A DNA stretch of 64,000 nt from a virus (taxonomy: Duplodnaviria > Caudoviricetes): positions 1 to 64,000 of the IMG/VR virus record IMGVR_UViG_2675903036_000001, one strand, 5' to 3'. Below, one piece after another: positions 17,039-62,625 of the stretch. The notes beneath the pieces are model-generated. The model was not told the DNA's origin, searched no databases, and saw nothing but the letters and a program-made list of their open reading frames with translations. The position numbers and the translations under genes were made by a program. Within the stretch, counting starts at the first letter, position 1. Every line of letters begins with the position of its first letter.

Positions 17039-17110
17039 AATTAAAGCCCGCAGCACGGGCAAAATTGAAGCGCAGCGAAAATTTTGTCTCTGTGCCTGTG
17101 ATTGTTAAGC
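17039..17110 (-). other. attC site (terminal, R' degenerate)
   Basis: Minus strand: R'' GCTTAAC, 5 nt, L'' CAG(G)CACA, hairpin, L' CGTGCTG, CGGGC, then TTTAATT instead of GTTRRRY. Confidence 0.7.
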
Positions 17111-17112
17111 TT

Positions 17113-18063
17113 CTATGGGTAAATCACTTTTAGCTTCTCCAAGTTACCATGCTCGAATTTTTTGTGTAGAGCCGGCCTATCTATAGCGAAGCTTCCAGAT
17201 TTCGCTACTTCATCAATGGCCGAGTTGAGAAACTTAAATAGCTCAGAGCCCGTTGAATTACCCTGAACCAGGGCTTGTTCGTAAATATTCTGTGCTCTTG
17301 CCTCGAATTGATTCCTCATTCCGAGTACGGCGACTTGGTCTTCTGAAACTTCTTCACCTTCGGTAAACATCTCGATAATCCCATCTTCGTTCTGACGTTC
17401 TTTCATACGATATACGAAAATATGATGAGACCTCCTCCGAGGACAGTAGATGCCAGCTGCAAAATCTGTGCTCATTAGATCCAAATCTTCACGACTTAAT
17501 CGATATTTCTTTGCAGACTTTAGCGCCACGTTGATTGAGTGCTCGATAATACTTGCTATGAATTCAAATGATAAAAGACCTTCAAAATGTCTTGGGAGAA
17601 ACATATCCTCACCCCACAAAACCACTCTCGGAGAATCCCTGAGCTCGTTGTGTTCACAGTGACGCTGAACAATGTACTCACCAGGAGAGGAACTTTCACT
17701 GCATGATTTATAAGAGATTTGAAGTTTCGCCAGATGTTCGATGATCGTGTTTAATGCGTGGGTGGCGGTAAGAGTACTTCCTGAAAAGGCTATAAAGCAG
17801 CCAGTTTCTATATACACTTCAAAGTAATCACGAAAATATTCACCTACGAAGTATGGTTTCCATAGTTTTATTGGGACGTGGTGGACCTTCCTCAACCCAC
17901 TAAGAATTGGCTTTTCTCCCTGAGTACCATTTGCAGTTATTACGCTATCTGATACTGCGAATAGTCCTTCGCTACGAAGAGAAATTTTCGACTCTTCTTT
18001 GTGCGCCCAAACCTGTGAAAAACCATCTTTTACCTTTTCGTGCCCAACAATAACTAGAGTCAT
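17113..18063 (-). CDS. Cassette gene, possible Ntn-hydrolase/proteasome-beta-like protein
   Basis: GAGGA RBS then MTLVIVG...AVSDSVIT...IAFSGS; bounded by attC sites. Confidence 0.55.
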   Translation of the reverse strand: MTLVIVGHEKVKDGFSQVWAHKEESKISLRSEGLFAVSDSVITANGTQGEKPILSGLRKVHHVPIKLWKPYFVGEYFRDYFEVYIETGCFIAFSGSTLTATHALNTIIEHLAKLQISYKSCSESSSPGEYIVQRHCEHNELRDSPRVVLWGEDMFLPRHFEGLLSFEFIASIIEHSINVALKSAKKYRLSREDLDLMSTDFAAGIYCPRRRSHHIFVYRMKERQNEDGIIEMFTEGEEVSEDQVAVLGMRNQFEARAQNIYEQALVQGNSTGSELFKFLNSAIDEVAKSGSFAIDRPALHKKFEHGNLEKLKVIYP

Positions 18064-18077
18064 CAGATCCTCATTAA

Positions 18078-18148
18078 GTCTAACGTTCAAGGTCAGGGGC
18101 GCGGCGCGGCTTTATCGCGCAGCGTCCCCCTGCACCCCAGGGTTGGCC
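18078..18148 (-). other. attC site (intact, 71 bp)
   Basis: Minus strand: GGCCAAC-CCTGG-GGT(G)CAGG...CCTGACC-TTGAAC-GTTAGAC; canonical boxes, spacers and extrahelical base. Confidence 0.9.
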
Positions 18149-18155
18149 GTCATTG

Positions 18156-19319
18156 CTATACCCCCGCGCCATCACTGTGCGAAACCGGAATTCTCTTGAA
18201 GTATTTTTTCAAGGCCCAGCCCGTCTGATGGCTCTGTAACAGCCAATGAAAATACTCAAATTGAATCCACTTTCCTCGCTCGGATATTGGCTTCACAACT
18301 TCGCGCGGGAATAGCTTCCCCTCTACGGGGGCTCCATGTTCTGGCCTACGCCTGACTGTAGCGATGCGATCCAAAACCACGAAGCGCTGTTCATCTCGCT
18401 TGGCTTCCTGGACGAGTGCCTTTTCCACGAGGCGTGACAATGACTCAAGTTGCTTGGCTTGGGTCTGAAGGAGCAACCTTTGGGCCTCCAGCCTCTCGTC
18501 AGTTTGCTTTTGCCACTCGCGAGACGACAGCTCTTGATAAATGGGTATCAAGAATGTGAGGATAAAACTCAGCAAGGTCATCAGCTCTAGCTTCCTTCGA
18601 CTGAGGCCAATCCCCGCCTCTACTGGCGCTAACGCCTTCTCGCTCAAGGTGCCATCTGGGGCAATACCGAGGGCGGCAAGTTGAGCCTCCATGCCCTCTG
18701 GCCCAAGAAGCCTCGCGAGAGTACTCGCAGAGGTGAAGTCAACGACGGGCAGAGTCAACCGACCCAGCTGCTCTTGCATTGCTTTCAGCGCACCGATGGA
18801 GTCAACCAATTCGGCAGGCACAGACCAACTTCGTTCAGCCTCTTTATATGCGTTCATTGTCTGGGCAAGGGACCCGGCAATGGAAGTCGCTGAAAGCATC
18901 TCTTGCGCGTGAGAGAACGAAGACTGCATACTTTCCTGCATAGCTTCCGCGACGTGATTGAAGTGGCTAGCCTCTCTAGCGGCCCTCTCCACTTCGGCAC
19001 TCAGGAACGATGATTGTTCGATCTCTTCCATCAGTTTCCGATAACTAGAGTCAAACATCAGACTCTTGCGAATGTCGGCAATGGGATCAAGCATCGTTCT
19101 AATGTGGTCGAGTTGTAGCCTGTTCGCATGCTGGAACTCTTCAGCCATCTTTGCCGCTACTGATGCGGGCTCAGCGAGTAATCGAAGTTGTTCTGAAAGT
19201 GTATTGATTGGTTGGAGGTTCTCAATCCAGCTGCGTCGTGCTTCTTCCATCCTCTTCATTTCTCGATAAACGCTGCTATCCGGAAATGCATTAATAGCGG
19301 ATAGGCCAAGAATCTTCAT
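18156..19319 (-). CDS. Cassette gene: helical protein with one TM and a C-terminal SH3-like domain
   Basis: TM LMTLLSFILTFLIPIY; VRRRP...GKW...TGW. Cassette begins at GTTGGGC (19377). Confidence 0.65.
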   Translation of the reverse strand: MKILGLSAINAFPDSSVYREMKRMEEARRSWIENLQPINTLSEQLRLLAEPASVAAKMAEEFQHANRLQLDHIRTMLDPIADIRKSLMFDSSYRKLMEEIEQSSFLSAEVERAAREASHFNHVAEAMQESMQSSFSHAQEMLSATSIAGSLAQTMNAYKEAERSWSVPAELVDSIGALKAMQEQLGRLTLPVVDFTSASTLARLLGPEGMEAQLAALGIAPDGTLSEKALAPVEAGIGLSRRKLELMTLLSFILTFLIPIYQELSSREWQKQTDERLEAQRLLLQTQAKQLESLSRLVEKALVQEAKRDEQRFVVLDRIATVRRRPEHGAPVEGKLFPREVVKPISERGKWIQFEYFHWLLQSHQTGWALKKYFKRIPVSHSDGAGV

Positions 19320-19607
19320 GAATTACCTTCTATCGCATTGGCATAGGACACTGTGCGATCTGCCTGTGACGCCCAACAACGTATTGTATACGACAAAAAA
19401 TGTCTCATAACTTAGTTAAGGATAGAAAAACACCGAATATAAAATATATGTTCTAGCAAAATAATGGTTATAAATTGCTTTGTGCATATCAACTAATATC
19501 AATATATAAGATACTCATTTCCAGAATCGATTTAAGATAAGGCAGTAGCTTGATCTGAATTATTTAAATGTTATCAGCGAGAAATATCTTCCTTTATGGC
19601 GGACTGT

Positions 19608-20093
19608 TTACTTTCTCCTGGATTTACGCCACTCCCAGGGTGGGATTTTCTCAGATTCAGGCAGACTCCATAGACCAACGCGATTTTTCCTTGCTTGATT
19701 TTCTAATGCATAAAGGCTCTTATCCTTAGCATATTGCCGATATACCCATGCGGAACCGCGTCTGACTAACTCCGCGTTTACATCAACATTACCCACATAG
19801 ACACGACCGACAACGCGCTTGTATCGATCCGTGCTCTGAGATTTGACGATAGCGGTTTTGTTATAAGCGAGTGCTGATAGCTCTTGCTTTGCCTTGCTAC
19901 CATATGGCTGTTTTGACTCCGGCGTGTCTATTTCAGCCAGTCGCACTTTGATTTGACGTTTATTCGAATCAAGAATCGTTAGGGTATCCCCATCAGATAT
20001 GGCTACGACACGGCCTCTGTATTCTTGAGCAGCGTAGAGCGGAAGCGATAATACAAGCAGAATCAGATTAAAAAGGATTATTTTTGGTTGCAT
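19608..20093 (-). CDS. Thermonuclease (SNase) family, exported
   Basis: Signal peptide; ISDGDT, VRLAEIDTPE, DRYKR and PPWEWR. Confidence 0.92.
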   Translation of the reverse strand: MQPKIILFNLILLVLSLPLYAAQEYRGRVVAISDGDTLTILDSNKRQIKVRLAEIDTPESKQPYGSKAKQELSALAYNKTAIVKSQSTDRYKRVVGRVYVGNVDVNAELVRRGSAWVYRQYAKDKSLYALENQARKNRVGLWSLPESEKIPPWEWRKSRRK

Positions 20094-20849
20094 TCACACC
20101 GATCCAAATTTCTTGAACGTCATGGGAAGTGCCCGGATTACTCTTCCGATAATCCGTGTGCCCTCCATGCGGTCATCCCATGGCCAGCTCTGATAAAACT
20201 TATTATCCGAGCTGACCATGAGCGTCTTTCCAACAATTGAAAGTCTTTTGCATATTAGTTCGCCGCCGTGAAGCAATATGTAAATAGCCTCTCCGGCATA
20301 ATCTTTGATCGACATGTCAACAAACAGCAAGTCATCAGGTTGGATGGTAGGAGCCATGCTATCTTTACTAGCAATGACAATCTGAATCTTATTATTACGA
20401 TTCATGCTGCCAATCAGGTGTTGTGCTTCATTTGGTTCCATTTCTATCGATCGTACAATCTCGTGGTAATCATTATTAAAATGACCTTCTCCACAAGCAG
20501 CTTTTACGTCAAGAATGTGGAAAAAGGCGGAGGCGTTAGTATCTTCCTCGAAGGATATCCTCTTTGAGGATATGACTGGTTCCTGGTCATATATTGCGGA
20601 GGATTTATGTATATGTTCAATAGGTTGATCCATCCAACCGCGTGGTTTTCTACATATTTCCTCTATATCTCTTGCCGATCTGCTGCTCATAGCACGAGGT
20701 TTGCCGGTCGCTGAATCGGGTGATTCATTTACCCATTGTGATACTTGTGATTGGTGCTTGCCTATTTTCTCGGCAAACCTCGTTAATCCGCCAGCTTCCT
20801 CGATAAGGATATTAAGTCTGGCTATTCGAATTTTATTAATAGTTTCCAT
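20094..20849 (-). CDS. cI: CI-like repressor with S24 peptidase domain
   Basis: N-terminal HTH; AACG cleavage-like site; DSMAPTI; ICKRL; SSDN. Confidence 0.9.
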   Translation of the reverse strand: METINKIRIARLNILIEEAGGLTRFAEKIGKHQSQVSQWVNESPDSATGKPRAMSSRSARDIEEICRKPRGWMDQPIEHIHKSSAIYDQEPVISSKRISFEEDTNASAFFHILDVKAACGEGHFNNDYHEIVRSIEMEPNEAQHLIGSMNRNNKIQIVIASKDSMAPTIQPDDLLFVDMSIKDYAGEAIYILLHGGELICKRLSIVGKTLMVSSDNKFYQSWPWDDRMEGTRIIGRVIRALPMTFKKFGSV

Positions 20850-20858
20850 AACCTAAAA

Positions 20859-20926
20859 ATAGCATTTTGCTAATAGAAAATAAATTAGCGTAACGCTTGA
20901 CTAAGTTATTAGCGCTGCGCTAATAT
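20859..20926. promoter_or_regulatory. OR region: three operators and PR
   Basis: ATAGCATTTTGCTAA (20859-73), TTAGCGTAACGCTTG (20885-99), TTAGCGCTGCGCTAA (20909-23); TTGACT-18-TAATAT. Confidence 0.8.
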
Positions 20927-20955
20927 AATAAAAGGAATATATAAAAGACCCAAAA

Positions 20956-21420
20956 ATGAATTCAGAAAGAAAACACATTGCATTTGAAAGAGCCTGCGAC
21001 ATAGTTGGTTGTCAGGCAAAAATGGCAAGGCTGCTTAATATGAAGCCTCCAACAATCAATCAATGGATACATCTTGTAAAACAAATCCCAGCAGAACGCT
21101 GCCCTGAAATTGAGAAATTAACCAACGGCGCCGTGAAATGCGAAGAACTTCGCCCCGACATCGATTGGGCATACCTGAGAAGCACGGTTACTACAACCAA
21201 ACCGCAAGCATCAACATTCCCTATTCCAGAAACAGAGCTTTCTTCGATTCCTGTAGAGGATTCAGGGAAGCTTTTAATCATCGACAAGTCGGATCGCCGC
21301 AATGAAGAGCGGAGAAAAGGTGATCGCCGCGATGGTGACCGTCGTAATGACAATGGCGCTGGACGCCGTGTTGGTGAGCGACGTATCTGCGATAGACGCT
21401 CTTGTGATCGTCGCGAATAA
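20956..21420 (+). CDS. cro: Cro/YdaS-family regulator with C-terminal [D/E]RR repeat tail
   Basis: Divergent from cI; IPAERCPEIE.LTNGAV.CEELRPDIDW. Confidence 0.85.
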   Translation: MNSERKHIAFERACDIVGCQAKMARLLNMKPPTINQWIHLVKQIPAERCPEIEKLTNGAVKCEELRPDIDWAYLRSTVTTTKPQASTFPIPETELSSIPVEDSGKLLIIDKSDRRNEERRKGDRRDGDRRNDNGAGRRVGERRICDRRSCDRRE

Positions 21421-21626
21421 AAATGACCGTAATTACGATTATGCGATGCCTCCTGATTATTGATTTCCTTGGGTCCTCTTACCTCGTGGCGCTACTCCCT
21501 TATCTGCGGTACCCCATCCAGCAGGTCGCCACGGGAGATTTTTTTAATCATGCAGGAGTTTATGTGGGTGGGGAATCGTACAGGAGTACACCTGTACTTT
21601 GGTACAGGTAGGGAAGGGCAGTAGAA

Positions 21627-22736
21627 ATGCATTACTACCAATTCAATATAGCTGACTATAGAAAGGATACTTCCCACTTGTCCCCTATAGAGCACTACAT
21701 ATACCGAACGCTTATTGATTGGTATTACCTCGATGAATCACCAATACCCAAAGAAACCCAGATGGTATTGCGCCGGTTATGCTTGGGAACCGAACATGAA
21801 CCTAATTTAAAGAATGTACTTTCCGACTTCTTTATAAACACCGAATTTGGTTGGAGACACAAACGAATAGAGCAGGAAATTATTGAGTATGCGGCCAAGT
21901 GTGAAAAAAACGCAAACAACGGAAAGAAAGGCGGCAGGCCGAAGAAAACCCAGTCGGTTAATTGCGCTAACCCAAATGAAAGCGAATTAAACCCTAACCA
22001 AAAACCAATAACCAATAACCAAGAACCATTAAAAACCTTTACACCACCCCCCAACCCCCCTGAGGGGGGCTCTGCCGTCCTGTCGGACTCCGGGTCTATC
22101 GACCCTCCGTTCTCCAGTCCGGTCGCAAGGGGTTCAGCAGAAAATCGCAAGAAATCGCAAAAGATCACCGAAAATCCGCTCGAAAACAGCGGTAAAAAAC
22201 CTGAGACTGACGCCAGAAATCAGCCACAAAACATAGAAAAATCAAGTGTTAACACCCAGAATCTGCCAGCTGAAACCGGAAAACCACCTGGCGGATTAAC
22301 GGTCGTTGCAAAGCAAAATCCTCAGCCCATGCTGATCGTGGGTAAAGAAGCTCCGAAAAAGCCGAAAAACCACGGTACTCCTGAAACACTCACAAGCGAA
22401 ACCTGGGATGCGTACGCCGTAGCCTACGAACAACGCTACGGCGCAACACCGGTGCGAAATGCTACGGTCAGCGGTCAGCTAGCGCATTTTGTGAAACGCA
22501 TCGGAAGGGACGAATCGCCGCATGTAGCAAGGTTCTTTGTCTTTCATAACTCGCAGTATTACGTCAAAAAAATGCATGCTGTCGGGGTAATGCTGGCTGA
22601 TGCTGAGAAGCTCAGAACCGAATGGGCAACCAATCGCAGCGTAACCGAAACGCAAGCAAAGCAGATAGACCGTAAACAGACTACCAGCAACGTTTTTAAT
22701 CAACTAATTGAGGAAGTAAGGAATGGGAAAATCTGA
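21627..22736 (+). CDS. YdaU/DUF1376-type replication initiator
   Basis: MHYYQFNIADY..DT.HLS..EH..YR.LID.YY..E.P; NGKKGGRP. Confidence 0.8.
   Translation: MHYYQFNIADYRKDTSHLSPIEHYIYRTLIDWYYLDESPIPKETQMVLRRLCLGTEHEPNLKNVLSDFFINTEFGWRHKRIEQEIIEYAAKCEKNANNGKKGGRPKKTQSVNCANPNESELNPNQKPITNNQEPLKTFTPPPNPPEGGSAVLSDSGSIDPPFSSPVARGSAENRKKSQKITENPLENSGKKPETDARNQPQNIEKSSVNTQNLPAETGKPPGGLTVVAKQNPQPMLIVGKEAPKKPKNHGTPETLTSETWDAYAVAYEQRYGATPVRNATVSGQLAHFVKRIGRDESPHVARFFVFHNSQYYVKKMHAVGVMLADAEKLRTEWATNRSVTETQAKQIDRKQTTSNVFNQLIEEVRNGKI
21990..22028 (+). repeat. 7-bp NNAACCA tandem repeats inside the initiator gene (possible ori)
   Basis: CTAACCA AAAACCA ATAACCA ATAACCA AGAACCA. Confidence 0.45.
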
Positions 22737-23361
22737 GATGGAAGAATTGGTCAAAGCCATCGCTGTAACGGCTGAATTGACCGGAACAGAGTTATCGATT
22801 GATGCAGCCAGGGTCATGGCTATGGACTTGTCTGAATACCCGATTAATCAGGTACTGGCTGCTTTGACGAAATGCAGACGTAGCCTGAGCGGAAGGCTTA
22901 CGGTTCAAGCCGTTATCAGCAGAATTGATGATGGAAGACCTGGGCCGGAAGAGGCTTGGGCTATGGTCCCAAGAGACGAAAGCGCATCTATTGTTTGGAC
23001 TGATGAAATGGCGCAGGCGTTTGGCATAGCCAATTCGTTGATTTGTGACGGGAGTACGATTCAAGCCCGTATGGCTTTTATTGAGTCATACAAAAGGTTA
23101 TGTGATGAGTCGCGTGAGCAAAAGATACCTGTTAGATGGACTCCATCGCTAGGGCATGACAAAAGAGGCCGCGAGTCAGTTCTGATGGATGCTGTGATGA
23201 AAGGACGCTTAGCTGCTAATCATGCTCTTGGCCTACTGCCTCATATCGATGGATCGGATGCTAAAGAAAATCTTCTTGCGATTATTAGATCAACTGATCG
23301 TCTCATTAAGATTAAAGCAATTGATCAATCTCCCAAATTAACCGAGAAAGAGTTTGCTTGA
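22723..23361 (+). CDS. Putative replication accessory/helicase-loader protein
   Basis: Follows the initiator; DDGRPGPEEAW, ARMAFIESY and WTPSLG. Confidence 0.6.
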   Translation: MGKSEMEELVKAIAVTAELTGTELSIDAARVMAMDLSEYPINQVLAALTKCRRSLSGRLTVQAVISRIDDGRPGPEEAWAMVPRDESASIVWTDEMAQAFGIANSLICDGSTIQARMAFIESYKRLCDESREQKIPVRWTPSLGHDKRGRESVLMDAVMKGRLAANHALGLLPHIDGSDAKENLLAIIRSTDRLIKIKAIDQSPKLTEKEFA

Positions 23362-23407
23362 TAAGCGACAGAAAAAGCAAATAAACGAAGGGAAGAGGAA
23401 AAAGAAA

Positions 23408-23596
23408 ATGATTGGCCCTGTTAGCGATTACACGATTTTAAAAGAATCCGAGATGCCCGATCTGATTGATCGCGTTTGCCAATGCATCACGCTAGGCTGG
23501 GAGCCGCTTGGGTCGCCATTTGCAGATGGTGGTAATCATATTTCTGGCAGGCAATGGTGCCAGGCAATGGTCAAGAGGGAGGGAAGTAGGAAATGA
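23408..23596 (+). CDS. DUF1737-like small protein
   Basis: Y..L......L...V......GW.P.GSP....QAMVK pattern. Confidence 0.6.
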   Translation: MIGPVSDYTILKESEMPDLIDRVCQCITLGWEPLGSPFADGGNHISGRQWCQAMVKREGSRK

Positions 23597-23781
23597 GCGG
23601 GGAGCATTTTTACAGTTGCGCAATCGTCGATAGAAATAACCATCCGCTACATGACACATCAATGTCTGGATTGAATGAGAAAGACCTGCAGAAAGTCGCG
23701 GATATCTACAATGATGCAGCGCCTATGAATGCGGATACTAACGCGCCATACCGTGTGGTTAAGCTGTTTTTCAAGGATTAG
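23593..23781 (+). CDS. Hypothetical protein
   Basis: Coupled ORF in the early right operon. Confidence 0.5.
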   Translation: MSGEHFYSCAIVDRNNHPLHDTSMSGLNEKDLQKVADIYNDAAPMNADTNAPYRVVKLFFKD

Positions 23782-23787
23782 AGAGAG

Positions 23788-24267
23788 ATGCAGCAAGTTC
23801 GCAAGAAACCGTCCAAAGAAAAATTGATGTTCAAGGTGACTAAGGGTGCGCTTGTGCCGGCAGATTCTTACACGTCTGAAAGGCTAAGAGTGCGCAGGTA
23901 TCGGATTGGTGACTTAGTGGCGGTGATCATCTCCAAAATCCGTTCGCCTGGTTTTAATCGGCTAGCTCATCGTATCGGGCAGTTGGTTGTAGCTAATATC
24001 GATGATTTTCATGGGATGGACGCTCATGACGCGCTTAAAAAAATCCAGCTGGAAGGGAACATTGCCTGCGATGAAATGATGGTGGATTTTGGTGAGGGTG
24101 AAGTGAAATATCGCATACCGAGAAGCTTGTCTTTTGAGTCGATGGAGGAAGGGGAATTCAGGCAGGTTGCGGTGAAATTTTGCGAGTACATCGCAAATCG
24201 GTATTGGCCTGATCTTGATCCAGAGCAGATTGAGCACATGGCTCAGAGTTTTGTGGAGGCGGCGTGA
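23788..24267 (+). CDS. Nin-region protein (DUF1367-like)
   Basis: GALVPAD, RSPGFNR and IPRSLSFESMEEGEF. Confidence 0.6.
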   Translation: MQQVRKKPSKEKLMFKVTKGALVPADSYTSERLRVRRYRIGDLVAVIISKIRSPGFNRLAHRIGQLVVANIDDFHGMDAHDALKKIQLEGNIACDEMMVDFGEGEVKYRIPRSLSFESMEEGEFRQVAVKFCEYIANRYWPDLDPEQIEHMAQSFVEAA

Positions 24268-25262
24268 AAGCTTACTACAACGAATTTGATCGCGATGCTG
24301 CTGCTTGGCTGCGGCAGCTAATTAATGGTGGATTGATTGCTGACGGGGAAGTGGATGAGCGAAGCATTACTGAAGTTGAAGCAAATGACCTTGTGGGATT
24401 CGACAGATGCCATTTTTTCGCTGGGGTTGGAACTTGGGACTATTGCCTTAACGAAGCTGGATGGGGAAATAGACCGGTCTGGACAGCAAGCCTTCCCTGC
24501 CAGCCTTTCAGTGTCGCCGGAAAAGGATTCGGTAAGTCTGATGAACGGCACTTGCTCCCACACTTCGTTGAATTGGTCAGACAGTGCAAGCCTGACACTT
24601 TGTTTGGAGAGCAGGTTGCGTCAGCAATTCGCCACGGTTGGCTCGATGATTTACATGCAGAAATGGGTAAAGAAGGTTACGCCGTCGGGCATTGCGTATT
24701 CGGAGCACACAGCATCGGCACCGCGCACATCAGACAAAGGCTTTACTGGGTTGCCAACTCCATTCGCACCGGATCACAAGGGAAGGTATCAGGGCGGGAG
24801 GACGAGAAACGGCAAGCTCTCGAAAGACTCACTGGATGTCGTGGCGCAGATAGCTGGATGGGCATCACCAACAGCAACAGACTCAAGCAGAGGAGTGAAG
24901 CCGCCGAGGCCGCACGATACAGGAATACCGTTGACGCAACAGGTGGGGTTGATAGCCGGGTGGAGCACTCCAAGAGCAAACAAATGGGGATTCCCGGACA
25001 GTCACGGAAGCGACGAGAGGCCGATGTTGTCGAATGGCTCTACTGCCGAGACAACAAATACCGGCCAGTTAAATCCGGCCTTAAGCCGCTGGTTGATAGG
25101 ACTTCCACCGGAGTGGTGTACAGCGGCAATCAAAACCAAGAGATCAATGCCGACTACTCGCTTGAAGCAAAAACAATGAGGTTAAGAGGGTATGGCAACG
25201 CCATTGTGGCAGGGTGTGGGATTGAGTTTATTTCAGCATTTATGGATGTGATGCATGACTAA
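24264..25262 (+). CDS. C5-cytosine DNA methyltransferase, alpha polypeptide (motifs I-VIII and X)
   Basis: FFAGVG, PCQPFS, GEQV, HIRQRLYWVA and RLRGYGNAIV. Confidence 0.88.
   Translation: MKAYYNEFDRDAAAWLRQLINGGLIADGEVDERSITEVEANDLVGFDRCHFFAGVGTWDYCLNEAGWGNRPVWTASLPCQPFSVAGKGFGKSDERHLLPHFVELVRQCKPDTLFGEQVASAIRHGWLDDLHAEMGKEGYAVGHCVFGAHSIGTAHIRQRLYWVANSIRTGSQGKVSGREDEKRQALERLTGCRGADSWMGITNSNRLKQRSEAAEAARYRNTVDATGGVDSRVEHSKSKQMGIPGQSRKRREADVVEWLYCRDNKYRPVKSGLKPLVDRTSTGVVYSGNQNQEINADYSLEAKTMRLRGYGNAIVAGCGIEFISAFMDVMHD
24337..25179 (+). CDS. Nested +1-frame MTase beta polypeptide (motif IX-like); true start uncertain
   Basis: 280 open codons inside the alpha gene; three G(W/L)x(T/S)P repeats; GQLNPALSRWLIGLPPEW. 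Confidence 0.75.
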   Translation: MLTGKWMSEALLKLKQMTLWDSTDAIFSLGLELGTIALTKLDGEIDRSGQQAFPASLSVSPEKDSVSLMNGTCSHTSLNWSDSASLTLCLESRLRQQFATVGSMIYMQKWVKKVTPSGIAYSEHTASAPRTSDKGFTGLPTPFAPDHKGRYQGGRTRNGKLSKDSLDVVAQIAGWASPTATDSSRGVKPPRPHDTGIPLTQQVGLIAGWSTPRANKWGFPDSHGSDERPMLSNGSTAETTNTGQLNPALSRWLIGLPPEWCTAAIKTKRSMPTTRLKQKQ

Positions 25263-25545
25263 AGCAGAAAAAGACCATATGTCTGCAGTTGCCTCAACCT
25301 GCTGCGTAATCTGCCGCGAGTTCGATGGAGTGAGAACGCCCGGCCAGGTTCATCACGTTGCAGATGGTAGTAACCCTAGAAGCAGTTTCATGACGATTTG
25401 TCTTTGTGAATCTCACCACGTTGGACATGTGGGGCTGCACGGCATGGGCCCAAAGAAGTTCTGCAAATTATTCAGATTGCCGAATGAGTTTTATCTGCTT
25501 GGGCTGCAGAACAAATATCTGGCGATAGATAGAGGATCGAGATGA
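25255..25545 (+). CDS. Ref-like HNH nuclease
   Basis: KAEKDHMSAVA..CCVIC...VHH...ICLCESHH. Confidence 0.7.
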   Translation: MTKAEKDHMSAVASTCCVICREFDGVRTPGQVHHVADGSNPRSSFMTICLCESHHVGHVGLHGMGPKKFCKLFRLPNEFYLLGLQNKYLAIDRGSR

Positions 25546-25746
25546 ATGGATACAAGCTCAGAAGAGTATAGAGCCGCATGTGAGGCCGAAGAGGTTTTCA
25601 GACTATTCAAAACCAAAGAAGAGCGCAGGGCTTACATAGATGGTGTTGAGAAAAAAAGAGGAATCGCTGCGGCAAACAAGCTTAGATCAGATGTTTATGA
25701 CGAGTGGTATAGGAGAAAAAATGGAAGCGGAGCAGGCAATAAATAA
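25546..25746 (+). CDS. Small phage hypothetical protein
   Basis: SEEYRAACEA...R..Y...VEKKRG..AA..LR. Confidence 0.6.
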   Translation: MDTSSEEYRAACEAEEVFRLFKTKEERRAYIDGVEKKRGIAAANKLRSDVYDEWYRRKNGSGAGNK

Positions 25747-25835
25747 AAACTGGATGATTTCGTTTTTGAGTAAGTACGAGCTGTCACGATCCTTCCGTCA
25801 TTTATACAAGAAGAAGAGGGAGGAGGGTTAAATGC

Positions 25836-26273
25836 ATGGCGATTTATTCGAATGAATTTAGAAAAGAGATGGAAAAGCGATTTGCAGAAAATGCGGGCTT
25901 GTCATCTGCTAAAAAGAAAAATAATACCCTGCAAGAATTACAGGCGCTAGGAAGGTTAAAGGAGCGCCAGATGAATAAGCTGGAACTGGCGTACTCTCAG
26001 CATCTTGAAGCGCTGAAAGCATGCGGATATGTGCTTTGGCACGAATTCGAGGCGGTAAAGCTTAGGCTTGCGGACAACACGCACTACACGGTTGATTTCA
26101 TGGTGATGAGAGCCAACGGCGAGCTGGAAGCTCATGAAGTAAAGGGCGGGTATGCGTTTGACGATTCGTTGGTTAAGCTGAAATGCGCGGCAGAGAAATT
26201 TCCCTGGCCATTCTACCTGGTGAAAAAGGGCAAGGACGGTACCTGGGATATCAGCAAGGTGGAAAATAAATGA
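25836..26273 (+). CDS. PD-(D/E)XK nuclease (DUF1064-like)
   Basis: MNKLE..Y...L; FEAVKLRLA...YTVDF...HEVKG. Confidence 0.7.
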   Translation: MAIYSNEFRKEMEKRFAENAGLSSAKKKNNTLQELQALGRLKERQMNKLELAYSQHLEALKACGYVLWHEFEAVKLRLADNTHYTVDFMVMRANGELEAHEVKGGYAFDDSLVKLKCAAEKFPWPFYLVKKGKDGTWDISKVENK

Positions 26274-26473
26274 GAGAAGAGCATCTAACCCGATTGTCAT
26301 TTAGAGACCCGCTCAAGGTTTTGATGGTGAAGGAATCCAGAACGTGCAAGGGGTGTGTGCATGAGCATCGTGAGCGTGCGTTTGGTCAGGACGTAGTGGT
26401 GTGCACCAGAATGGATGCTGATGGCAGACAACGCAAGCACGGCAGAAGATGTAAGGACTACAAAGAAAATTGA
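26270..26473 (+). CDS. Small Cys-rich protein
   Basis: RDPLKVL...TCKGC...C...RC. Confidence 0.55.
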   Translation: MREEHLTRLSFRDPLKVLMVKESRTCKGCVHEHRERAFGQDVVVCTRMDADGRQRKHGRRCKDYKEN

Positions 26474-26503
26474 TGGTTGTTACTGGTGCTTAACTGACAA
26501 GGA

Positions 26504-27046
26504 ATGTTGGAGATGGAGCCTATCAAATACTTTTTAAGAGGGGATTGTCCTGGGGAATATTTCGAGTGCAGCAGATTATCTGCAACACTGACTAAATCAT
26601 CGTGCGCCGATATGTGGCGTCAAGCACGCAAGGAAAAAGATAACTTCCGTCTTCATCACTGCAGGAACTGCAAGATAGGCGCAATGCATGCCGGAGAGCA
26701 TGAAATATCTACATCGCGTCTATCAGGTAAAAGAATCTGCGCCAGGTGTCACAGGCCATCCAATCGATTTATCAGCGACAATATTTGTGTGAGCTGCTAC
26801 AACAGGCAACAAGAGTGGTTGAAGGGGAAGAATGCTAAAGGCACTAAGCCGATTAAACAAAGGCCATTGAAACCAATGAGTGTGCCGTATGTAACTGGTG
26901 ACGAATTGCATATTGCAAGGGCTGTACTTGCAGAATCGACGAATGAAATGATTATTAGAATGCTGAGAGACAGTCAGAAAAACGTACGGTTTGGTTTTTA
27001 TAGAAAGGCGCTTGCGATTGAAGCCAGAGAGTTGGTATCTGACTGA
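26504..27046 (+). CDS. Zn-finger-like phage protein
   Basis: Several CxxC pairs; CVSCYNR..EW.KGKNAKG. Confidence 0.65.
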   Translation: MLEMEPIKYFLRGDCPGEYFECSRLSATLTKSSCADMWRQARKEKDNFRLHHCRNCKIGAMHAGEHEISTSRLSGKRICARCHRPSNRFISDNICVSCYNRQQEWLKGKNAKGTKPIKQRPLKPMSVPYVTGDELHIARAVLAESTNEMIIRMLRDSQKNVRFGFYRKALAIEARELVSD

Positions 27047-27380
27047 TCATATCTGCCGGAACTGCTTTGGACGCATTCTGGTGAGATACAAAAGCCGGGC
27101 AATTCAGCGCGTAGAGAATGCGCAACTTGATTTGTTTGCTGATGCTTCTGGTCAGAAAACGATTAAGGAGGCTGCGGGTGAACGTGTCTGGAGGGAGGTA
27201 GGCAAGGTATTCAGATGTGCTGATTGCGGACAGATAGCAGTTTCTGATGATCACAGGGATATCTGTTGCTGTGGTCTCAAGCTGAAAGACGGTACTGATT
27301 TAGGGATTAGATGTGTGTATTCGGATAATCCAAACGAGCCATATCAAACTGAAATTATAGCCAAGCAGATAGATGATTAA
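26991..27380 (+). CDS. Cys-rich hypothetical protein
   Basis: HICRNCFGRIL, RCADCG and ICCCG; start uncertain. Confidence 0.55.
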   Translation: MVFIERRLRLKPESWYLTDHICRNCFGRILVRYKSRAIQRVENAQLDLFADASGQKTIKEAAGERVWREVGKVFRCADCGQIAVSDDHRDICCCGLKLKDGTDLGIRCVYSDNPNEPYQTEIIAKQIDD

Positions 27381-27396
27381 TTAAAAGGAGAAAGAG

Positions 27397-27681
27397 GTGG
27401 AAGAACAAAACAATGCAAGTGGAGTGCCAGAGCTTGAAGTCAGCAAGCTCGATATCAAGGATGGTGACATTCTGCTTATTCGTATTCCCGCCGGGAAGGT
27501 GCCCGATAAAGAAGCACAAATGTACTTCTCGGCATTGAGGGATAGATTAACTACTCTGGGCTTTAAAGACGTGACCGTTCTCGTTTTGGACGCAGAGATT
27601 GATATAGAAACGCTTGATGAAAGAATCATGAGTAAGTACGGGTGGGTTAAGGCTCCTAAAGCGGAAAGTATGCTGCATTGA
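27397..27681 (+). CDS. Hypothetical protein
   Basis: AGGAG RBS; GTG start. Confidence 0.6.
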   Translation: MEEQNNASGVPELEVSKLDIKDGDILLIRIPAGKVPDKEAQMYFSALRDRLTTLGFKDVTVLVLDAEIDIETLDERIMSKYGWVKAPKAESMLH

Positions 27682-27686
27682 TTATC

Positions 27687-27703
27687 GATCGTGATGTTAG
27701 GTT
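27687..27703 (+). promoter_or_regulatory. Putative late promoter (TCGTGA motif) before the terminase genes
   Basis: GATCGTGA-TGT-TAGGTT. Confidence 0.55.
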
Positions 27704-27758
27704 AATGTGTATTCCGGCAAGAGTACAAATCACAATAAACTGGATAGCAATTAAACAC

Positions 27759-27968
27759 ATGACATTACCTTACGATGTAGAGAGATGTAAAGGAAAGAAC
27801 GCGCTTTTGTGTCAACGATGCATGCGGCGCGAACCGGGCGACCAGGTTGCGCAGTGGTTTATCACTCCGGCTTTGACGCTGGATGGCTGCCAGAATTTTA
27901 TTGGTTATTCATTCCTGAACGCCAAAACGATAGAGGGAGGGCTGGTAAGTGGCTCGACTAACTCCTGA
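27759..27968 (+). CDS. Small Cys protein
   Basis: MTLPYDVERCKG...CQRCMRR. Confidence 0.5.
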   Translation: MTLPYDVERCKGKNALLCQRCMRREPGDQVAQWFITPALTLDGCQNFIGYSFLNAKTIEGGLVSGSTNS

Positions 27969-28467
27969 GCAATGGAATGATATTCGTGCCAAATTTGAAG
28001 TAGGTGCTTCTGCCAGAGAGTTATCCGCGATATTCGGTATTTCTCATACGGCAATTAATAAAAAGGCCGAGAAAGAAGGATGGACGCGGAGTATTGAACC
28101 GGCGATCAGGCGGAAAGTTTCCGAGAAAGTTTCCGGCTATGTTTCCAGTGACAACCTTTCAAAACGGGCTGAGGCGATTGATGCTGAAGCGGAGCGCCGT
28201 GCCGCCGTTATTGAACGGCATCGTGAAGAATGGCCGACGGTTCGCGAGATGGTGGAGGCAGGCTGCAAAACTCATAGTGAGGCATCAAGTCTTGAGGAAA
28301 AGCGTATCGCGTTCGAAGACTTGAAAGCAGCCAAGATTGCGAGTGAAACGTTGAAGATCATTCAGGATGGGGAGAGGAAAGCCTGGAATTTAGATCAAAT
28401 TGTGGACGTGACGACGCTTACGGATGAGCAATTGGCGGCGATAGCTAAAGGGAGAATGCCAGTTTAA
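27949..28467 (+). CDS. terS: Terminase small subunit
   Basis: N-terminal HTH (W..IR..FE.G.S.RELS..FGISHTAI.KKA.KEGW); upstream of terL. Confidence 0.75.
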   Translation: MARLTPEQWNDIRAKFEVGASARELSAIFGISHTAINKKAEKEGWTRSIEPAIRRKVSEKVSGYVSSDNLSKRAEAIDAEAERRAAVIERHREEWPTVREMVEAGCKTHSEASSLEEKRIAFEDLKAAKIASETLKIIQDGERKAWNLDQIVDVTTLTDEQLAAIAKGRMPV

Positions 28468-28477
28468 TTACAAGAAC

Positions 28478-29389
28478 ATGGTGACTGCTAAAGATATGAC
28501 CGGAATGGTGTTTGGTCGCTTCACGGTAATTCGTCGTGATTCCGAAAGAAAAAGCCATTCTGGTTCAAGGTGGATATGCCGTTGTGAATGCGGCAACGAG
28601 AAATCCATAATTCGAGGCAATCTAATCAGTGGACAAATCAAGTCATGTGGTTGCCTCCTTCTTGGCGATCCAGCTAAGGTTTGCGGGCGAACACTTGGCG
28701 TATCCATTAATTATTTGCCAGGAGAGAGGTTTGGTCGTTTGGTCGTAATTTCTACATGCGAATCTAAAAAAGGAATGTCTCAATTCAATACGCGCTGTGA
28801 TTGTGGAAAGGATGTTACGGTTACAGGTCTGTATTTAAGAAAAAGCAAGAATCCTTCGTGTGGTTGCTACGAGTATGAAAACGCTAGAAATAGGCGATTG
28901 ATAAATTTATCTGGCGAGCGATTTGGCAAACTTACTGCTGTTGAGCGATCTGGAAAAAATTCTTCAGGCCACACATTGTGGTTGTGCAAATGTGACTGTG
29001 GATGTGAAAAGAAAGTTTCTCTTTCTTCATTGCGAAGTGGGCGCACTATTTCATGCGGGTGCGCTAAATCAGATAGTGTCGTTTGGATGCCAAATAATGC
29101 ACTCAGATATTCTCGCCATCGAGGTTCTATTCGTCGTGCGCTGAGGCATGGTGCTAATGGAAAATTCACAGAGAAAGAGATTGAAGAATTAAATAAAAAA
29201 CAAAAAGGTCGCTGTGCTTATTGTGGTGCAAAGTTTGGTAACTCATATGATCGCGATCACATTCAGCCTCTGAGCAAAGGTGGAAGTAACGCGATTGACA
29301 ATATTCAATTGTTATGTCGATCTTGCAATGGTCGTAAAAATGCCAAAGATCCGTTTACATGGGCTAATGAGATTGGGATGCTGTTGTAA
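28478..29389 (+). CDS. HNH homing endonuclease between terS and terL
   Basis: Three G.RFG.L.V...C.CG...SCGC repeats, plus CAYCG..DHIQPLSKGGSN..NIQLLC..CN. Confidence 0.85.
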   Translation: MVTAKDMTGMVFGRFTVIRRDSERKSHSGSRWICRCECGNEKSIIRGNLISGQIKSCGCLLLGDPAKVCGRTLGVSINYLPGERFGRLVVISTCESKKGMSQFNTRCDCGKDVTVTGLYLRKSKNPSCGCYEYENARNRRLINLSGERFGKLTAVERSGKNSSGHTLWLCKCDCGCEKKVSLSSLRSGRTISCGCAKSDSVVWMPNNALRYSRHRGSIRRALRHGANGKFTEKEIEELNKKQKGRCAYCGAKFGNSYDRDHIQPLSKGGSNAIDNIQLLCRSCNGRKNAKDPFTWANEIGMLL

Positions 29390-30912: not shown

Positions 30913-30938
30913 AATAAATAAAAATCTAATTGGCTATT

Positions 30939-30997
30939 ATTCTACTTTTGAAATAACCGGCGCGCTTTAACACGTTCAGTTGATTGAGTCGTTGGGC
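30939..30997 (-). other. attC site (terminal, R' degenerate)
   Basis: Minus strand: GCCCAAC-GACTC-AAT(C)AACT...GGTTATT-TCAAAA-GTAGAAT. R'' is the exact complement of this cassette's start GTTGGGC (31424). Confidence 0.75.
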
Positions 30998-31001
30998 GTG
31001 C

Positions 31002-31394
31002 TCACGGTTGCGCCATGAGCGCTTCATAGCCCCACACGATGCAGAGCGCAGCCAACAGTAGCCAAATTGCGATGATTACTGCGCCAGCAACCCGGCTTAC
31101 TGTTTTTCCATTTTTAATGGTTTCCTGTGCTCGTGTTCGGCATTCAGCCAGAACAGAATGGGGAACCAGCTTGATTGCCAATGCAATACCCAGAGGTATC
31201 AGGATGAGATCATCCAGGTAGCCAAGAACAGGCACAAAGTCCGGAATAAGATCAATAGGACTGAAGGCATAAGCAACGATACCGGCAACGAGAAGCTTGG
31301 CATACCAAGGTGTCCGTGGGTCGCGGGCAGCAAGATAAAGCGCAAAGGTTTCCGCCTTGAGATGGCGCGCGCGTTGTTTCAATTTTTCGAGCAC
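31002..31394 (-). CDS. Cassette gene, YkvA/DUF1232 membrane protein
   Basis: DPRTPWYAK..YAFSPIDLIPDFVPVLGYLDD; GTG start after GAGG. Confidence 0.85.
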   Translation of the reverse strand: MLEKLKQRARHLKAETFALYLAARDPRTPWYAKLLVAGIVAYAFSPIDLIPDFVPVLGYLDDLILIPLGIALAIKLVPHSVLAECRTRAQETIKNGKTVSRVAGAVIIAIWLLLAALCIVWGYEALMAQP

Positions 31395-31417
31395 TACCAC
31401 TGCCTCGCTAAATAGAC

Positions 31418-31534
31418 GCCCAACGCCTTGGTTAACCGGCGCCGGAGCACGAAGTGCGGAGGGTACCGACATAGGCCATGAAAATGCCGAAGGCATGGCC
31501 TATGTTGGCGTCCGCGTTGAACCCCCAGTTAGGC
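31418..31534 (-). other. attC site (intact, 117 bp)
   Basis: Minus strand: GCCTAAC-TGGGG-GTT(C)AACG...GGTTAAC-CAAGGC-GTTGGGC. R'' matches the cassette start GTTAGGC (32078). Confidence 0.9.
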
Positions 31535-31582
31535 TGGGGAGCGTAGGCACGGTGTTGCATGTCAGTTTTAATGATGGAAGTG

Positions 31583-32047: not shown

Positions 32048-32071
32048 GAGAACTTCCTATTGGTGACGAAA

Positions 32072-32221: not shown

Positions 32222-32224
32222 TAT

Positions 32225-32557: not shown

Positions 32558-32674
32558 GTTATTTGACACGACAATGCAAGGGGGATATATTGCAGATAAG
32601 TGCTCAAAACACTTCGCATAGCGGACTAACCTGCGCCCGATAGTCGTGGTTTTTTTACGTCCATAGTTTTCCTA

Positions 32675-60315: not shown

Positions 60316-61098
60316 TTGAGTTCTCTATTTCCAGATTTAACTGCGACAACAGCATTATTGAGGCAAGATCAATTAATGCTGGCTTCAAAATATGCTTTGC
60401 CCAATTCATCCAGCCTGTCGGATGACTACCTGAATTCAAAGTTGATAGCTGCTGAAGCTGATGCATCTAGGCAATTGAGAATCTATTTTGAACCAACAGT
60501 CATGATTCCTGACGATGTGCTTCAAGATGAGATTGATGCATTGGAGGCAGCCAACACGAAATATGCTCAGGAAGCAGCGTATGACTACGATTCACATTTT
60601 TTCACGGGAGAACGATGGGGATATATTGTCACGAAAGAGAAACCGATCATCTCAGTGCAATCTATCAAGTTTGCCTATCCTGCTCCAACCAATCAGGTGT
60701 TTGAAATTCCGCAATCGTGGATCAGGCTGGATAAAAAGTTTGGTCATATCCGGCTGGTTCCTGCTGCTCAATCCTTCTCTGCGCCATTGTCCGCGTTCAT
60801 CATGCAGGCATTAGGTGGTGGCAGAACGGTGCCCTTCATGATTCATGTGCGCTACACAGCAGGGTTGAGTAACCCTAACCAGGATTACCCGGATTTAGTT
60901 GATTTGGTCAAGAAAATGGCTATCTTGAGGATAATGCAGGATGCTTTCCTGCCGCAATCAGGATCGATCTCTTCAGATGGTCTCAGTCAGTCTATGAGCG
61001 TAGATTTGCAGAAATGGCATGATGGGATCGAGGATAAGCTGGATGCGCTAAGAGATGCTATTCACGGCCCACGCATTGCATTTCTGGGGCATGTTTAA
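60316..61098 (+). CDS. Head-tail adaptor/neck protein
   Basis: AGGAGG RBS; HVRYTAG and SISSDGLSQSMS; position after MCP. Confidence 0.65.
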   Translation: MSSLFPDLTATTALLRQDQLMLASKYALPNSSSLSDDYLNSKLIAAEADASRQLRIYFEPTVMIPDDVLQDEIDALEAANTKYAQEAAYDYDSHFFTGERWGYIVTKEKPIISVQSIKFAYPAPTNQVFEIPQSWIRLDKKFGHIRLVPAAQSFSAPLSAFIMQALGGGRTVPFMIHVRYTAGLSNPNQDYPDLVDLVKKMAILRIMQDAFLPQSGSISSDGLSQSMSVDLQKWHDGIEDKLDALRDAIHGPRIAFLGHV

Positions 61099-61100
61099 TC

Positions 61101-61730
61101 ATGGAGTTCAGCGTTGACTGGTTCAATGATCACTTGGCTGGGATGGGGCAAGATTTCTTGTGGCGCAAAGCATCCATGTGTCCGTGCGTCAATCCGCATA
61201 GTGGCGCAGCCAAGCCCAATTGCCCGATATGCGGCGGGAAGGGTAGAAGCTGGACTAATCCGGTTTCTGTTAAGGCTGGCATGGCAAGTGAGCGTGTTCT
61301 GCGTCAATGGGCGCAGTTTGGAAGGTATGAGGCAGGCGATGCAGTATTGAGCGTACCTGAAAGCTCATTACTCTATGAAGCAGGGCAATTTGACCGAGTG
61401 ACCATGCTGAATGCGACCGACCAATTCTCTTTAGTGTTAGTGCGTGGACAAAACGACAGAATAAGCTTCCCTGTGCAGAATATCGACCAGATATATTGGA
61501 TCGTCTCAGGCAATACCATTGTTGAAGGTGGCATTCCTTCGGTAGCGAGCAATGGGCAGTTATCCTGGACTTCTGGTGCGCCTCCTGCCGGCACTCATTA
61601 CAGCATATCTGGTACCAGGTACTCAGAATATTTTGCCTGGGATGAGGTGCCCGGTGACAGAAATCATCACTATGGCTCAAGACTTCCCAGAAAGCTGGTA
61701 GTGAGGCGATTTGATTTGTTTGGGCGGTAA
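61101..61730 (+). CDS. Head completion/neck protein
   Basis: WRKASMCPC...CPICGGKG, FDRVT and RLPRK. Confidence 0.65.
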   Translation: MEFSVDWFNDHLAGMGQDFLWRKASMCPCVNPHSGAAKPNCPICGGKGRSWTNPVSVKAGMASERVLRQWAQFGRYEAGDAVLSVPESSLLYEAGQFDRVTMLNATDQFSLVLVRGQNDRISFPVQNIDQIYWIVSGNTIVEGGIPSVASNGQLSWTSGAPPAGTHYSISGTRYSEYFAWDEVPGDRNHHYGSRLPRKLVVRRFDLFGR

Positions 61731-61867
61731 TTGTGAATCCTATTATATTGACTAAGGATGCCTGTTTTGCCCAAGTGTGCGGTAAAAAAGCATACCTCAA
61801 TGTCTAAAGCGGGTTTAAGCCTAAGTTTGTCACGCATTTGGCCCAACCGAGGTTTATTCATCAGATT

Positions 61868-62075
61868 TTTGTGGATCTAACGATGTTTGTTATGATGAAA
61901 ACTAAATTGACGCATTCCCATAAAACATGGGTAGATAACATGCGGTTTGCTGTGTTATTCCATTTCCAAATCAAAAGTTAATTATTAATGTGTCAAGTAA
62001 TTGAAGTTGCAACAATAAAAAATTAAATAAATACACTTTAGATTTAAAAATGGAATTAAATTTCATTTTTGACGT
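61868..62075 (+). other. Second copy of the cassette-upstream element
   Basis: Aligns with the reverse complement of 32112-32221; exact 15-mer TTTCATTTTTGACGT. Confidence 0.65.
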
Positions 62076-62132
62076 CATACCCAGAAGGAGCGGTGTCTTG
62101 ACGCAGGTGTATCAATAGATAGGAGGATTGCA

Positions 62133-62495
62133 ATGAGTGAGGACAACTCCAAAAAGGATGCGGTGAAGAATGAGAACGGTTCTGGTAAGGACACCATTAA
62201 GAAGGTCGGCGCCGAGAAAGGCGCAGCTGTAGGCGGAGCGGTCGCCGGGGCCGTTACTGGGGCTGCTGCAAGTGCAGTGGCTGCCGCTGCCGCGGGTACA
62301 ACCACTTCGCTCACAGTGGGAGCTGGATTCGCGCCGTTTGTTTCAGCTCTTGGGGCGGCAAAATTGGCTTCCTTGCCTGGCATTGTTTTATTTCTTGCGA
62401 ACCCCGTTGGGGGGGCGATCGCCACAGGAGCGCTCGCTGTTGGCGGGGCCGTTGTTGGTTACAAGATCGCGAAGGCCATTGCGAAGAAGCTCTAA
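62133..62495 (+). CDS. Cassette gene, Gly/Ala-zipper membrane protein
   Basis: AGGAGG RBS; GxxxG-rich hydrophobic segments; followed by an attC. Confidence 0.7.
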   Translation: MSEDNSKKDAVKNENGSGKDTIKKVGAEKGAAVGGAVAGAVTGAAASAVAAAAAGTTTSLTVGAGFAPFVSALGAAKLASLPGIVLFLANPVGGAIATGALAVGGAVVGYKIAKAIAKKL

Positions 62496-62543
62496 CATTG
62501 CAGGGTGCGCGTCACGCTGGTGATCTAGCGGCCACGAGTTGTG

Positions 62544-62625
62544 GCCTAACTTCCGCTTCAACGCGTACCCACGGCAAGCGGCGCTTCGCTTACTTGTTGC
62601 GGGTCGGTTAAGCGGAGCGTTATAA
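62544..62625 (+). other. attC site (82 bp)
   Basis: GCCTAAC-TTCCG-CTT(C)AACG...GGTTAAG-CGGAGC-GTTATAA. Confidence 0.85.

Follow-up and report, generated by a model that had tools for sequence, protein, structure and literature searches.

Integron cassettes and integrase-less attI platforms in a Nitrosomonas prophage

Integron cassettes are usually thought to move on plasmids and transposons. A screen of 10,705 phage genomes by Qi, Rajabal, Ghaly, Tetu and Gillings (2023; PMC9892861) recovered three complete integrons, one In0 and 17 clusters of attC sites lacking an integron integrase (CALINs), and one prophage in it has a CALIN with its own attI. Isolated cassettes and cassette insertion outside att sites are treated by Loot et al. 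(preprint 10.1101/2022.09.11.507474). In this study, we analysed a prophage (Duplodnaviria; Caudoviricetes) in IMG/VR virus record IMGVR_UViG_2675903036_000001, which carries integron cassettes at three separate loci, here called A, B and C, and an attI platform without an integrase at two of them. The window, that is the whole stretch of DNA analysed, comprises the first 64 kb (positions 1–64,000) of this 86.7-kb record. Phage-borne integron parts have been known since 2023 and the present case is a further clear example of them. What seems to be new is the orphan, multi-copy attI pads of the Nitrosomonadaceae and the cassette polymorphism at a phage-borne pad.

Like the phage integrons in PMC9892861, the prophage is a temperate phage with attC sites, attI and cassettes. 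Unlike those cases, it has no integron integrase gene (intI) beyond a 16-codon stub, its cassettes stand at three separate loci, its host is a nitrifier, its attI is one of a multi-copy family whose members in the host family are for the most part integrase-less, and there is cassette-level polymorphism at the phage attI, seen in a sister prophage and in a soil metagenome. With the chromosomal integrons of Nitrosomonadaceae it shares both the attI platform sequence and attC families; it differs from the complete ones among them in that the phage copies lack intI, as do most chromosomal platform copies. Literature retrieved for Nitrosomonas, integron and attI contained, by titles and abstract openings, nothing on phage.

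The large terminase subunit (TerL) is 99% identical between the window and a prophage of Nitrosomonas sp. Nm132, and the host is therefore a Nitrosomonas. Each of the three loci is flanked by phage genes that are collinear in this sister prophage, so that all three lie inside the phage. An earlier note, made from the sequence alone, had proposed integron cassettes within a prophage, and this is upheld by the attC model described below, by homologs near intI and by the collinear phage flanks; we are almost certain that genuine integron parts are carried in the phage. The same note saw the cassettes as filling moron slots; loci B and C are no bare slots, as each carries an integrase-less attI platform, which the note had overlooked, and locus C an intI stub as well. 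The prophage would then hold three pieces of Nitrosomonadaceae integrons, in which locus B may be read as an integrase-less attI platform followed by the HNH cassette (attI-proximal) and then the DUF1232 cassette, locus C as a decayed mini-integron (intI stub, broken platform, one cassette and an insertion resembling a miniature inverted-repeat transposable element, MITE), and locus A as a platform-less cluster of two cassettes. Their features are as follows, with the extra base of the L'' box in square brackets, a slash in G/TT at the expected point of recombination, and ORF for open reading frame.

Locus B, 32078–32229, minus: integrase-less attI platform, ending ...GGAGGTCTAATTCTA then G/TT
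Locus B, 31425–32076, minus: HNH cassette, attI-proximal, ORF 31583–32047, lacking in the sister prophage
Locus B, 31418–31534, minus: attC B1, 117 nt; R'' GCCTAAC, L'' GTT[C]AAC, L' GTTAAC, R' GTTGGGC
Locus B, 30940–31424, minus: DUF1232 cassette, ORF ending at 31002
Locus B, 30940–30997, minus: attC B2; R'' GCCCAAC, L'' AAT[C]AAC, L' GTTATT, R' GTAGAAT
Locus C, 61813–61861, minus: intI stub, first 16 codons of an integron integrase, aligning with the 5' ends of full-length intI of genomes G115 and G119
Locus C, 61862–62080, plus: broken attI platform, attI core lost
Locus C, 62133–62495, plus: cassette C ORF, 120 aa, Gly/Ala-rich
Locus C, 62544–62625, plus: attC C; R'' GCCTAAC, L'' GCTT[C]AAC, L' GTTAAGC, R' GTTATAA
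Locus C, 62620–62795: MITE-like element of about 175 bp with terminal inverted repeats of about 14 bp, its start coinciding with the TT in the R' core of attC C
Locus A, 19371–19377, minus: start core of cassette A1, GTTGGGC, no attI platform upstream
Locus A, 18156–19319, minus: cassette A1 ORF, 387 aa, weakly SH3_3-like C-terminus
Locus A, 18078–18148, minus: attC A1; R'' GGCCAAC, L'' GGT[G]CAGGGG, L' CCCCTGACC, R' GTTAGAC
Locus A, 17113–18090, minus: cassette A2 ORF, likely true start ATG 18063 (Met-Thr)
Locus A, 17039–17110, minus: attC A2, decayed; R'' GCTTAAC, L'' CAG[G]CAC, L' GTGCTG, R' TTTAATT

The platform of locus B (about 155 bp, read from 32229 down to 32078) ends ...TCTAATTCTA then G/TTAGGC and is homologous to the intergenic region between intI and attI of Nitrosomonadaceae integrons, the homology halting at G/TT. 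In G115:C58 and G119:C68 the same segment lies between the first cassette and a full-length, divergently read intI (502.7 bits), at a distance of 27 bp from the latter, and it abuts intI fragments at five other places (G001:C73, G071:C54, G036:C96, G036:C97 and G115:C72). In eight aligned copies the similarity ends at GTTA; the platforms of G115 and G119, which hardly differ before that point, lead into different cassettes. Beyond the platform, 29 other copies have flanks with nothing in common with the window. Judged by these alignments, the segment behaves as an attI site. It is also dispersed, occurring in 36 of the 121 family genomes sampled with at least 118 matches, a lower bound as up to seven copies were scored per genome, and many of these matches span only the attI-proximal ~60 bp; the Nm132 genome has six copies. 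An intI above the TIGR02249 curated cut-off is present in 25 of the 121 genomes. Among the 36 that bear the platform, 12 have such a gene and 24 do not, and seven of the 118 matches, among the matches listed, can be placed beside an intI. Most of the pads are therefore orphans, and the orphans sampled still hold small arrays with attCs. Short decayed intI starts persist beside several of the platform copies in Nm132.

The comparison of locus B with the sister prophage revealed a difference of exactly one cassette. The Nm132 prophage matches window positions 26305–31425 at 98.5% identity (5,121 nt, 78 mismatches, no gaps), and the match resumes at 32072 with 87% identity. The 646–653 bp skipped in Nm132 are the HNH cassette, with ends at G/TTAGGC and ...AAGGCG/TTGGGC. 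The distal DUF1232 cassette is common to both prophages and the missing one is attI-proximal, the position that in integrons belongs to the newest arrival, so that the absence of the HNH cassette matches the expectation for the newest insertion. In both cassettes of locus B, R'' is the exact complement, at 7/7 positions, of the cassette's own start (GTTAGGC/GCCTAAC and GTTGGGC/GCCCAAC), as the earlier note had read it. That note had also proposed to look for variation bounded by GTT in related prophages, and the outcome was positive at locus B, where the HNH unit is missing in Nm132.

Both forms of this locus were found in one soil metagenome run, X2; the metagenome evidence consists of contigs rather than reads, stretches without contig cover in runs X6, X7 and X8 being uninformative. 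A contig of depth 14.4 in run X2 shows the HNH-less joint of the Nm132 type, and a separate contig of that run, of depth 4.28, covers the HNH ORF over 31495–31802 with zero differences. The HNH cassette, the one cassette for which this was compared, thus behaves as a discrete unit, gone from Nm132 and from one X2 contig and ending at GTT cores. A further 25 loose ends with unlike continuations depart from the platform at 32072–32075 (runs X2, X6, X7 and X8, from four studies), many of which probably derive from chromosomal pads. HNH-plus and HNH-less forms both exist in nature, the contigs being silent on their origin, and cassette content differs at GTT cores between the sister prophages and within a soil population.

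The attC sites were scored with a covariance model of our own, R1, built from 19 chromosomal Nitrosomonadaceae attCs of 60–78 nt, with no site from the window or the Nm132 prophage. The seeds came from arrays beside intI genes located with TIGR02249, in which attC-shaped sites were picked by a crude script, and the R''/R' and L''/L' pairs were set as the structure of the 19-site alignment. In that alignment 82% of cells pair, compared with 70% in shuffles (0 of 500 as high) and 29–59% once the partner is slid. On chromosomal arrays R1 recovers untrained sites, every one at E<0.2 on the array strand. The search of all 64,000 bases on both strands with filters off gave seven matches at E≤10. The best four were A1 (46.2 bits, E 7.4e-9), B1 (25.8 bits, E 6e-4), C (19.9 bits, E 0.016) and B2 (12.6 bits, E 0.89), and the other three were weak, with E of 5–8. 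A control search with default filters over 110 kb (the last 22.7 kb of the record and the Nm132 contig of 87.5 kb) returned a single match at E<0.01, which was the Nm132 ortholog of B2 (23.8 bits, E 0.003).

The earlier note had named five attC sites, and all five features lie where it placed them, each on the strand of the preceding ORF and 2–48 nt past its stop codon. Their standing as attCs is more uneven: A1, B1 and C pass R1 at E<0.05 (3 of 5), B2 is borderline, and A2, whose R' core is lost, obtained no score in the window search. Loci A and B under this author-built model thus have one significant attC each plus one that is weak or decayed. Homologs of A1, B1 and A2 exist in chromosomal arrays, several of them 0.5–5 kb from an intact intI. 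The 3' half of A1 is 85–97% identical to attCs 0.5–5 kb from intI in six genomes (G083, G105, G024, G059, G006 and G093), the intI being intact in five and, in G093, split and reaching the cut-off only with its neighbour. Copies of B1 at ~80% identity occur in G057, G054 and G063; their homology stops at R'' and R', and their inner stem shows compensatory changes. The copy in G063, which has a partial attI 1.7 kb upstream of it, obtains 23.9 bits. Site A2 aligns over its full length with G119_a and G115_c, which are attCs of arrays beside intact, full-length intI genes. It shares their central motif and shows a compensatory L''/L' change with the extra base kept, and its R' has TTTAATT in place of the GTTAG of these relatives, the GTT core having been lost. 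On the strength of these alignments and scores, three of the sites appear solid, one weakened but real, and one real but decayed.

Two other criteria for attC sites were set aside. A rule-based scan proved unspecific, with 11 matches in the window compared with a mean of 4.25 in 20 shuffles, and was kept for seed-finding only. Free-energy folding as a sole criterion fails to separate the sites, as B2 (z 0.08 on the cassette strand, 0.18 on the other) and A2 (z −0.64 and −1.67 on the two strands) fold no better than shuffles. Separately, an array on contig C62 of Nm132 (L032, 5375–5405) has a cassette whose R'' GCATAAC is the exact complement of its own start GTTATGC and is followed after only 6 nt by GTTAGCT; this attC seems to have lost its entire centre.

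Locus C was assigned in the earlier note to the neck module and in fact follows the genes for a tail fibre and a virion structural protein. It forms part of a 1.4-kb block (61730–63152) that is missing from Nm132, where the two convergent phage genes are ~14 bp apart. The translation of its intI stub was compared with the intI fragment of Nm132. The platform consists of the intI-proximal ~90 bp, an AT-rich insertion of ~110 bp (61952–62060) that is 91% identical to a stretch of another Nm132 contig (G001:C24:2336-2445), and a 20-bp platform fragment; the GTTAGGC cassette start is no longer present. Site attC C folds as one long imperfect hairpin on either strand, with z −2.16 on the bottom strand (4 of 200 shuffles as good) and z −1.42 on the top strand (18 of 200). 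The MITE-like element at its 3' end is multi-copy in 23 of the 121 genomes. We rejected it as attC-specific, as R1 matches two sites in 13 other loci of the element, both ~1.2 kb or more away. It holds a palindrome that by eye looks like a candidate LexA box. A repeat of ~80 bp in the same insert (62989–63071) is 82–86% identical to copies in six other genomes.

Locus A is on the strand of a cI-like repressor gene and a staphylococcal-nuclease-like gene and downstream of both, a position that rexAB occupies in lambda. Between these genes and the first cassette is filler of 29% GC (19378–19604), which is missing from the sister prophage. The R'' boxes of the two cassettes are complementary to their own cassette starts at 6/7 and 5/7 positions. 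Where the window has locus A, the sister prophage has other, unrelated genes over 2.5 kb, in which the R1 search found no attC, and the locus is by this comparison a variable slot. As a small attC cluster without attI or intI nearby, locus A resembles CALINs and single attC sites lacking an integron integrase (SALINs), and insertion by attC x attG recombination as presented in 10.1101/2022.09.11.507474; it starts at GTT in otherwise unrelated DNA, as insertion at a genomic site would leave. It differs from them in lying within a phage genome, downstream of the repressor, and in having a 3' attC without a GTT core. Locus A may have originated either by secondary-site insertion or by block transfer.

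These observations can be accommodated by a mechanism in which an integron integrase (IntI) encoded on the host chromosome acts in trans. It would join a cassette circle, through its folded attC, to the phage attI at G/TT, new cassettes would enter beside attI, and the phage would carry the loaded cassettes to its next host. The IntI of N. europaea is reportedly active, according to work attributed to Leon and Roy in 2003. We lean towards the view that the attI on the phage is, or was until recently, a substrate of a host IntI, and we infer that IntI made the cassette differences by acting on the phage copy and that the phage could still be loaded today. A more tentative suggestion, possible at best, is that the ~155-bp platform is a dispersed and mostly integrase-less landing pad, with one IntI, resident or incoming, serving many pads together; temperate phages with a pad would be loaded in one host and bring pad and cassettes to the next, and so would shuttle cassettes among soil nitrifiers. 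It draws on the platform matches, which number 118 or more over 36 of 121 genomes, 24 of them without an intI above the cut-off.

Several observations weigh against loading by IntI. The earlier note's statement that there is no integron integrase stands for the 86.7-kb record, in which the best TIGR02249 match (24.7 bits, cut-off 265) is the phage integrase, and needs amending for the 16-codon stub at 61813–61861. The sister host Nm132 has no intact intI in its genome, where a 77-residue fragment is all that was found. The sister prophage itself was found once, in Nm132, by a TerL search of 190 family genomes. A scan of the cassette strand of the platform found no sigma-70-like promoter, and the exact attI-core pattern had 0 matches in IMG/VR, a search outside which near-identical records possibly fall. 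The junction shared by Nm132 and X2 reads AATTTC-GTTGGGC, whereas clean excision by IntI from the window form predicts AATTCTA-GTTGGGC; the HNH-less junction departs from the clean product by 2–3 nt, so that a single clean event does not account for the difference between the two forms. The fall in identity from 98.5% to 87% across the boundary indicates that other recombination acted there. In addition, three of the five 3' cores are non-canonical (A2 TTT, B2 GTA, and C joined to the MITE-like end), so that these sites are probably dead, and locus C is without an attI core.

The main rival explanation, en-bloc capture from chromosomal mini-integrons and subsequent decay, draws on many of the same facts. 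It holds that the loci are inert fossils, integron fragments captured whole by homologous or illegitimate recombination with chromosomal mini-integrons, on which no IntI has acted since, and that the HNH difference came from exchange or slippage. The abundance of platform copies, including the six in Nm132, offers ample homology for such exchange, and the identity step at the locus B boundary, the imperfect HNH-less junction, the decayed 3' cores of A2, B2 and C, the broken platform of locus C and the lack of an intact intI in Nm132 all fit it. Moreover, X2 has a second joint (31425 to 32072), which a deletion between two AGGC repeats could explain, although letters may intervene at that joint. 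Block capture, however, predicts none of the three features that distinguish the HNH unit, namely that it ends at both GTT cores, that its R'' and its own start are exactly complementary, and that it is the attI-proximal cassette. We consider this explanation rather unlikely, while regarding it as the strongest competitor to loading by a host IntI.

Homing of a free-standing endonuclease gene is a far less probable explanation. Homing HNH endonucleases near terL are common in phages, the cassette gene encodes an HNH endonuclease, and a second HNH gene stands just upstream of terL, so that the presence or absence of the HNH gene might be due to homing and its attC-like flanks incidental. The polymorphic unit, however, includes a 117-nt attC with homologs in the arrays of other genomes, and its ends lie at GTT cores beside attI, whereas homing would give co-converted flanks and no fixed ends; we regard this explanation as very improbable. 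That the sites are chance hairpins or terminators resembling attC, as the unspecific rule-based scan and the poor folding of B2 and A2 might suggest, is scarcely credible given the homologous attCs beside intI elsewhere and the compensatory stem changes, and for A1, B1 and C it is refuted by those homologs together with the R1 E-values.

The proteins encoded by the cassettes are diverse. The HNH cassette protein matches HNH_3 (E 3.7e-6) and phrog_10822, and the DUF1232 cassette encodes a membrane protein (DUF1232, E 4.3e-14). The A1 protein has a Pfam match to SH3_3 (E 0.004) that falls short of the cut-off, and Atlas feature matches to clusters bearing SH3_3; it has no match in PADLOC or PHROGs. 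The A2 protein belongs to phrog_25719, of unknown function (E 5.6e-50). Its Atlas structure, the entry for which begins at residue 10, has a TM of 0.56 to a PF00227 cluster, and the fold is accordingly predicted to be proteasome/Ntn-hydrolase-like. No family was found in Pfam, PADLOC or PHROGs for the 120-aa protein of locus C. The earlier suggestion that the cargo could be defensive was not supported, as PADLOC gave generic HNH matches for one of six proteins and nothing further; a defensive role is a guess. Homologs of the DUF1232 and A2 proteins elsewhere have an attC nearby at one of eight loci (G073), which lends little support to these ORFs travelling as cassettes elsewhere. The GC content of the prophage is 46.5%, and it is exceeded in four of the five cassettes: A1, HNH and DUF1232 have 51–53% and the ORF and attC of locus C 59%, the exception being A2 with 42%.

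The wider context of the loci in the window is provided by the following features.

1–5000: host flank, with 6S RNA at 3749–3927 and a tRNA at 4902–4991
5096–6277: phage integrase, after the host flank
19608–20093, minus: staphylococcal-nuclease-like gene, directly downstream of the repressor, present in both prophages
20094–20849, minus: cI-like S24 repressor, immunity region
20956–21420, plus: divergent regulator, immunity region
28478–29389, plus: second, larger HNH endonuclease, just upstream of terL
29389–30912: terL
60316–61730: tail-fibre gene and virion structural gene

More distant relatives of the phage were of limited use. A megablast search of positions 17000–32800 against 50,697 phage records gave no match. 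By TerL, relatives were found at seven loci in IMG/VR (six at 66%, one at 32%) and at four loci on metagenome contigs (32–73%), all too distant for a comparison of junctions.

Several features surround the platform of locus B. The gene at 32225–32557 (plus) encodes a 110-aa signal-peptide protein with Gly/Tyr-rich repeats, and its start codon is where intI would begin, at the edge of the platform. It is 87% identical to the Nm132 copy, compared with 98.5% for the flanking phage DNA, and its product has no family match in Pfam, PADLOC or PHROGs. After this ORF is a weak attC-like match (32624–32690, plus; 9.2 bits, E 5.9), which overlaps the 5' end of the small RNA sRNA-Xcc1 and is probably due to chance. 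The latter (RF02221; 32676–32763, plus; 68.4 bits) is directly upstream of a Bro-N/ORF6C gene (32806–33630), and the Nm132 copy is elsewhere on the prophage contig (C70:69602). In Xanthomonas sRNA-Xcc1 is cassette-borne with symE, and it was considered as integron evidence and dropped, as it is also found upstream of an ORF6N gene in APSE phages. The sRNA, the Bro-N/ORF6C gene and a 372-aa ORF make up a second variable stretch of 3.1 kb (32550–35666) between terL and the next conserved late gene, in place of which Nm132 has 5.5 kb of unrelated DNA; the gap from terL to the next late gene is ~2.5 kb shorter in more distant relatives. At the end of the window (63959–64000) is a stretch of 35–43 bp that is repeated on at least six Nm132 contigs at 88–97% identity.

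The present analysis adds to the known phage-borne integron parts a prophage with attI docking sites that lack any integrase, and comparative evidence that the cassette content at a phage attI varies between near-identical prophages and within one soil sample. A third addition is a bacterial family with many copies of the attI platform, most of them orphans. Should a host IntI be able to load such pads, phages would be a route of cassette exchange among environmental nitrifiers, and the numerous orphan pads would offer a simple means of testing integron recombination in trans.

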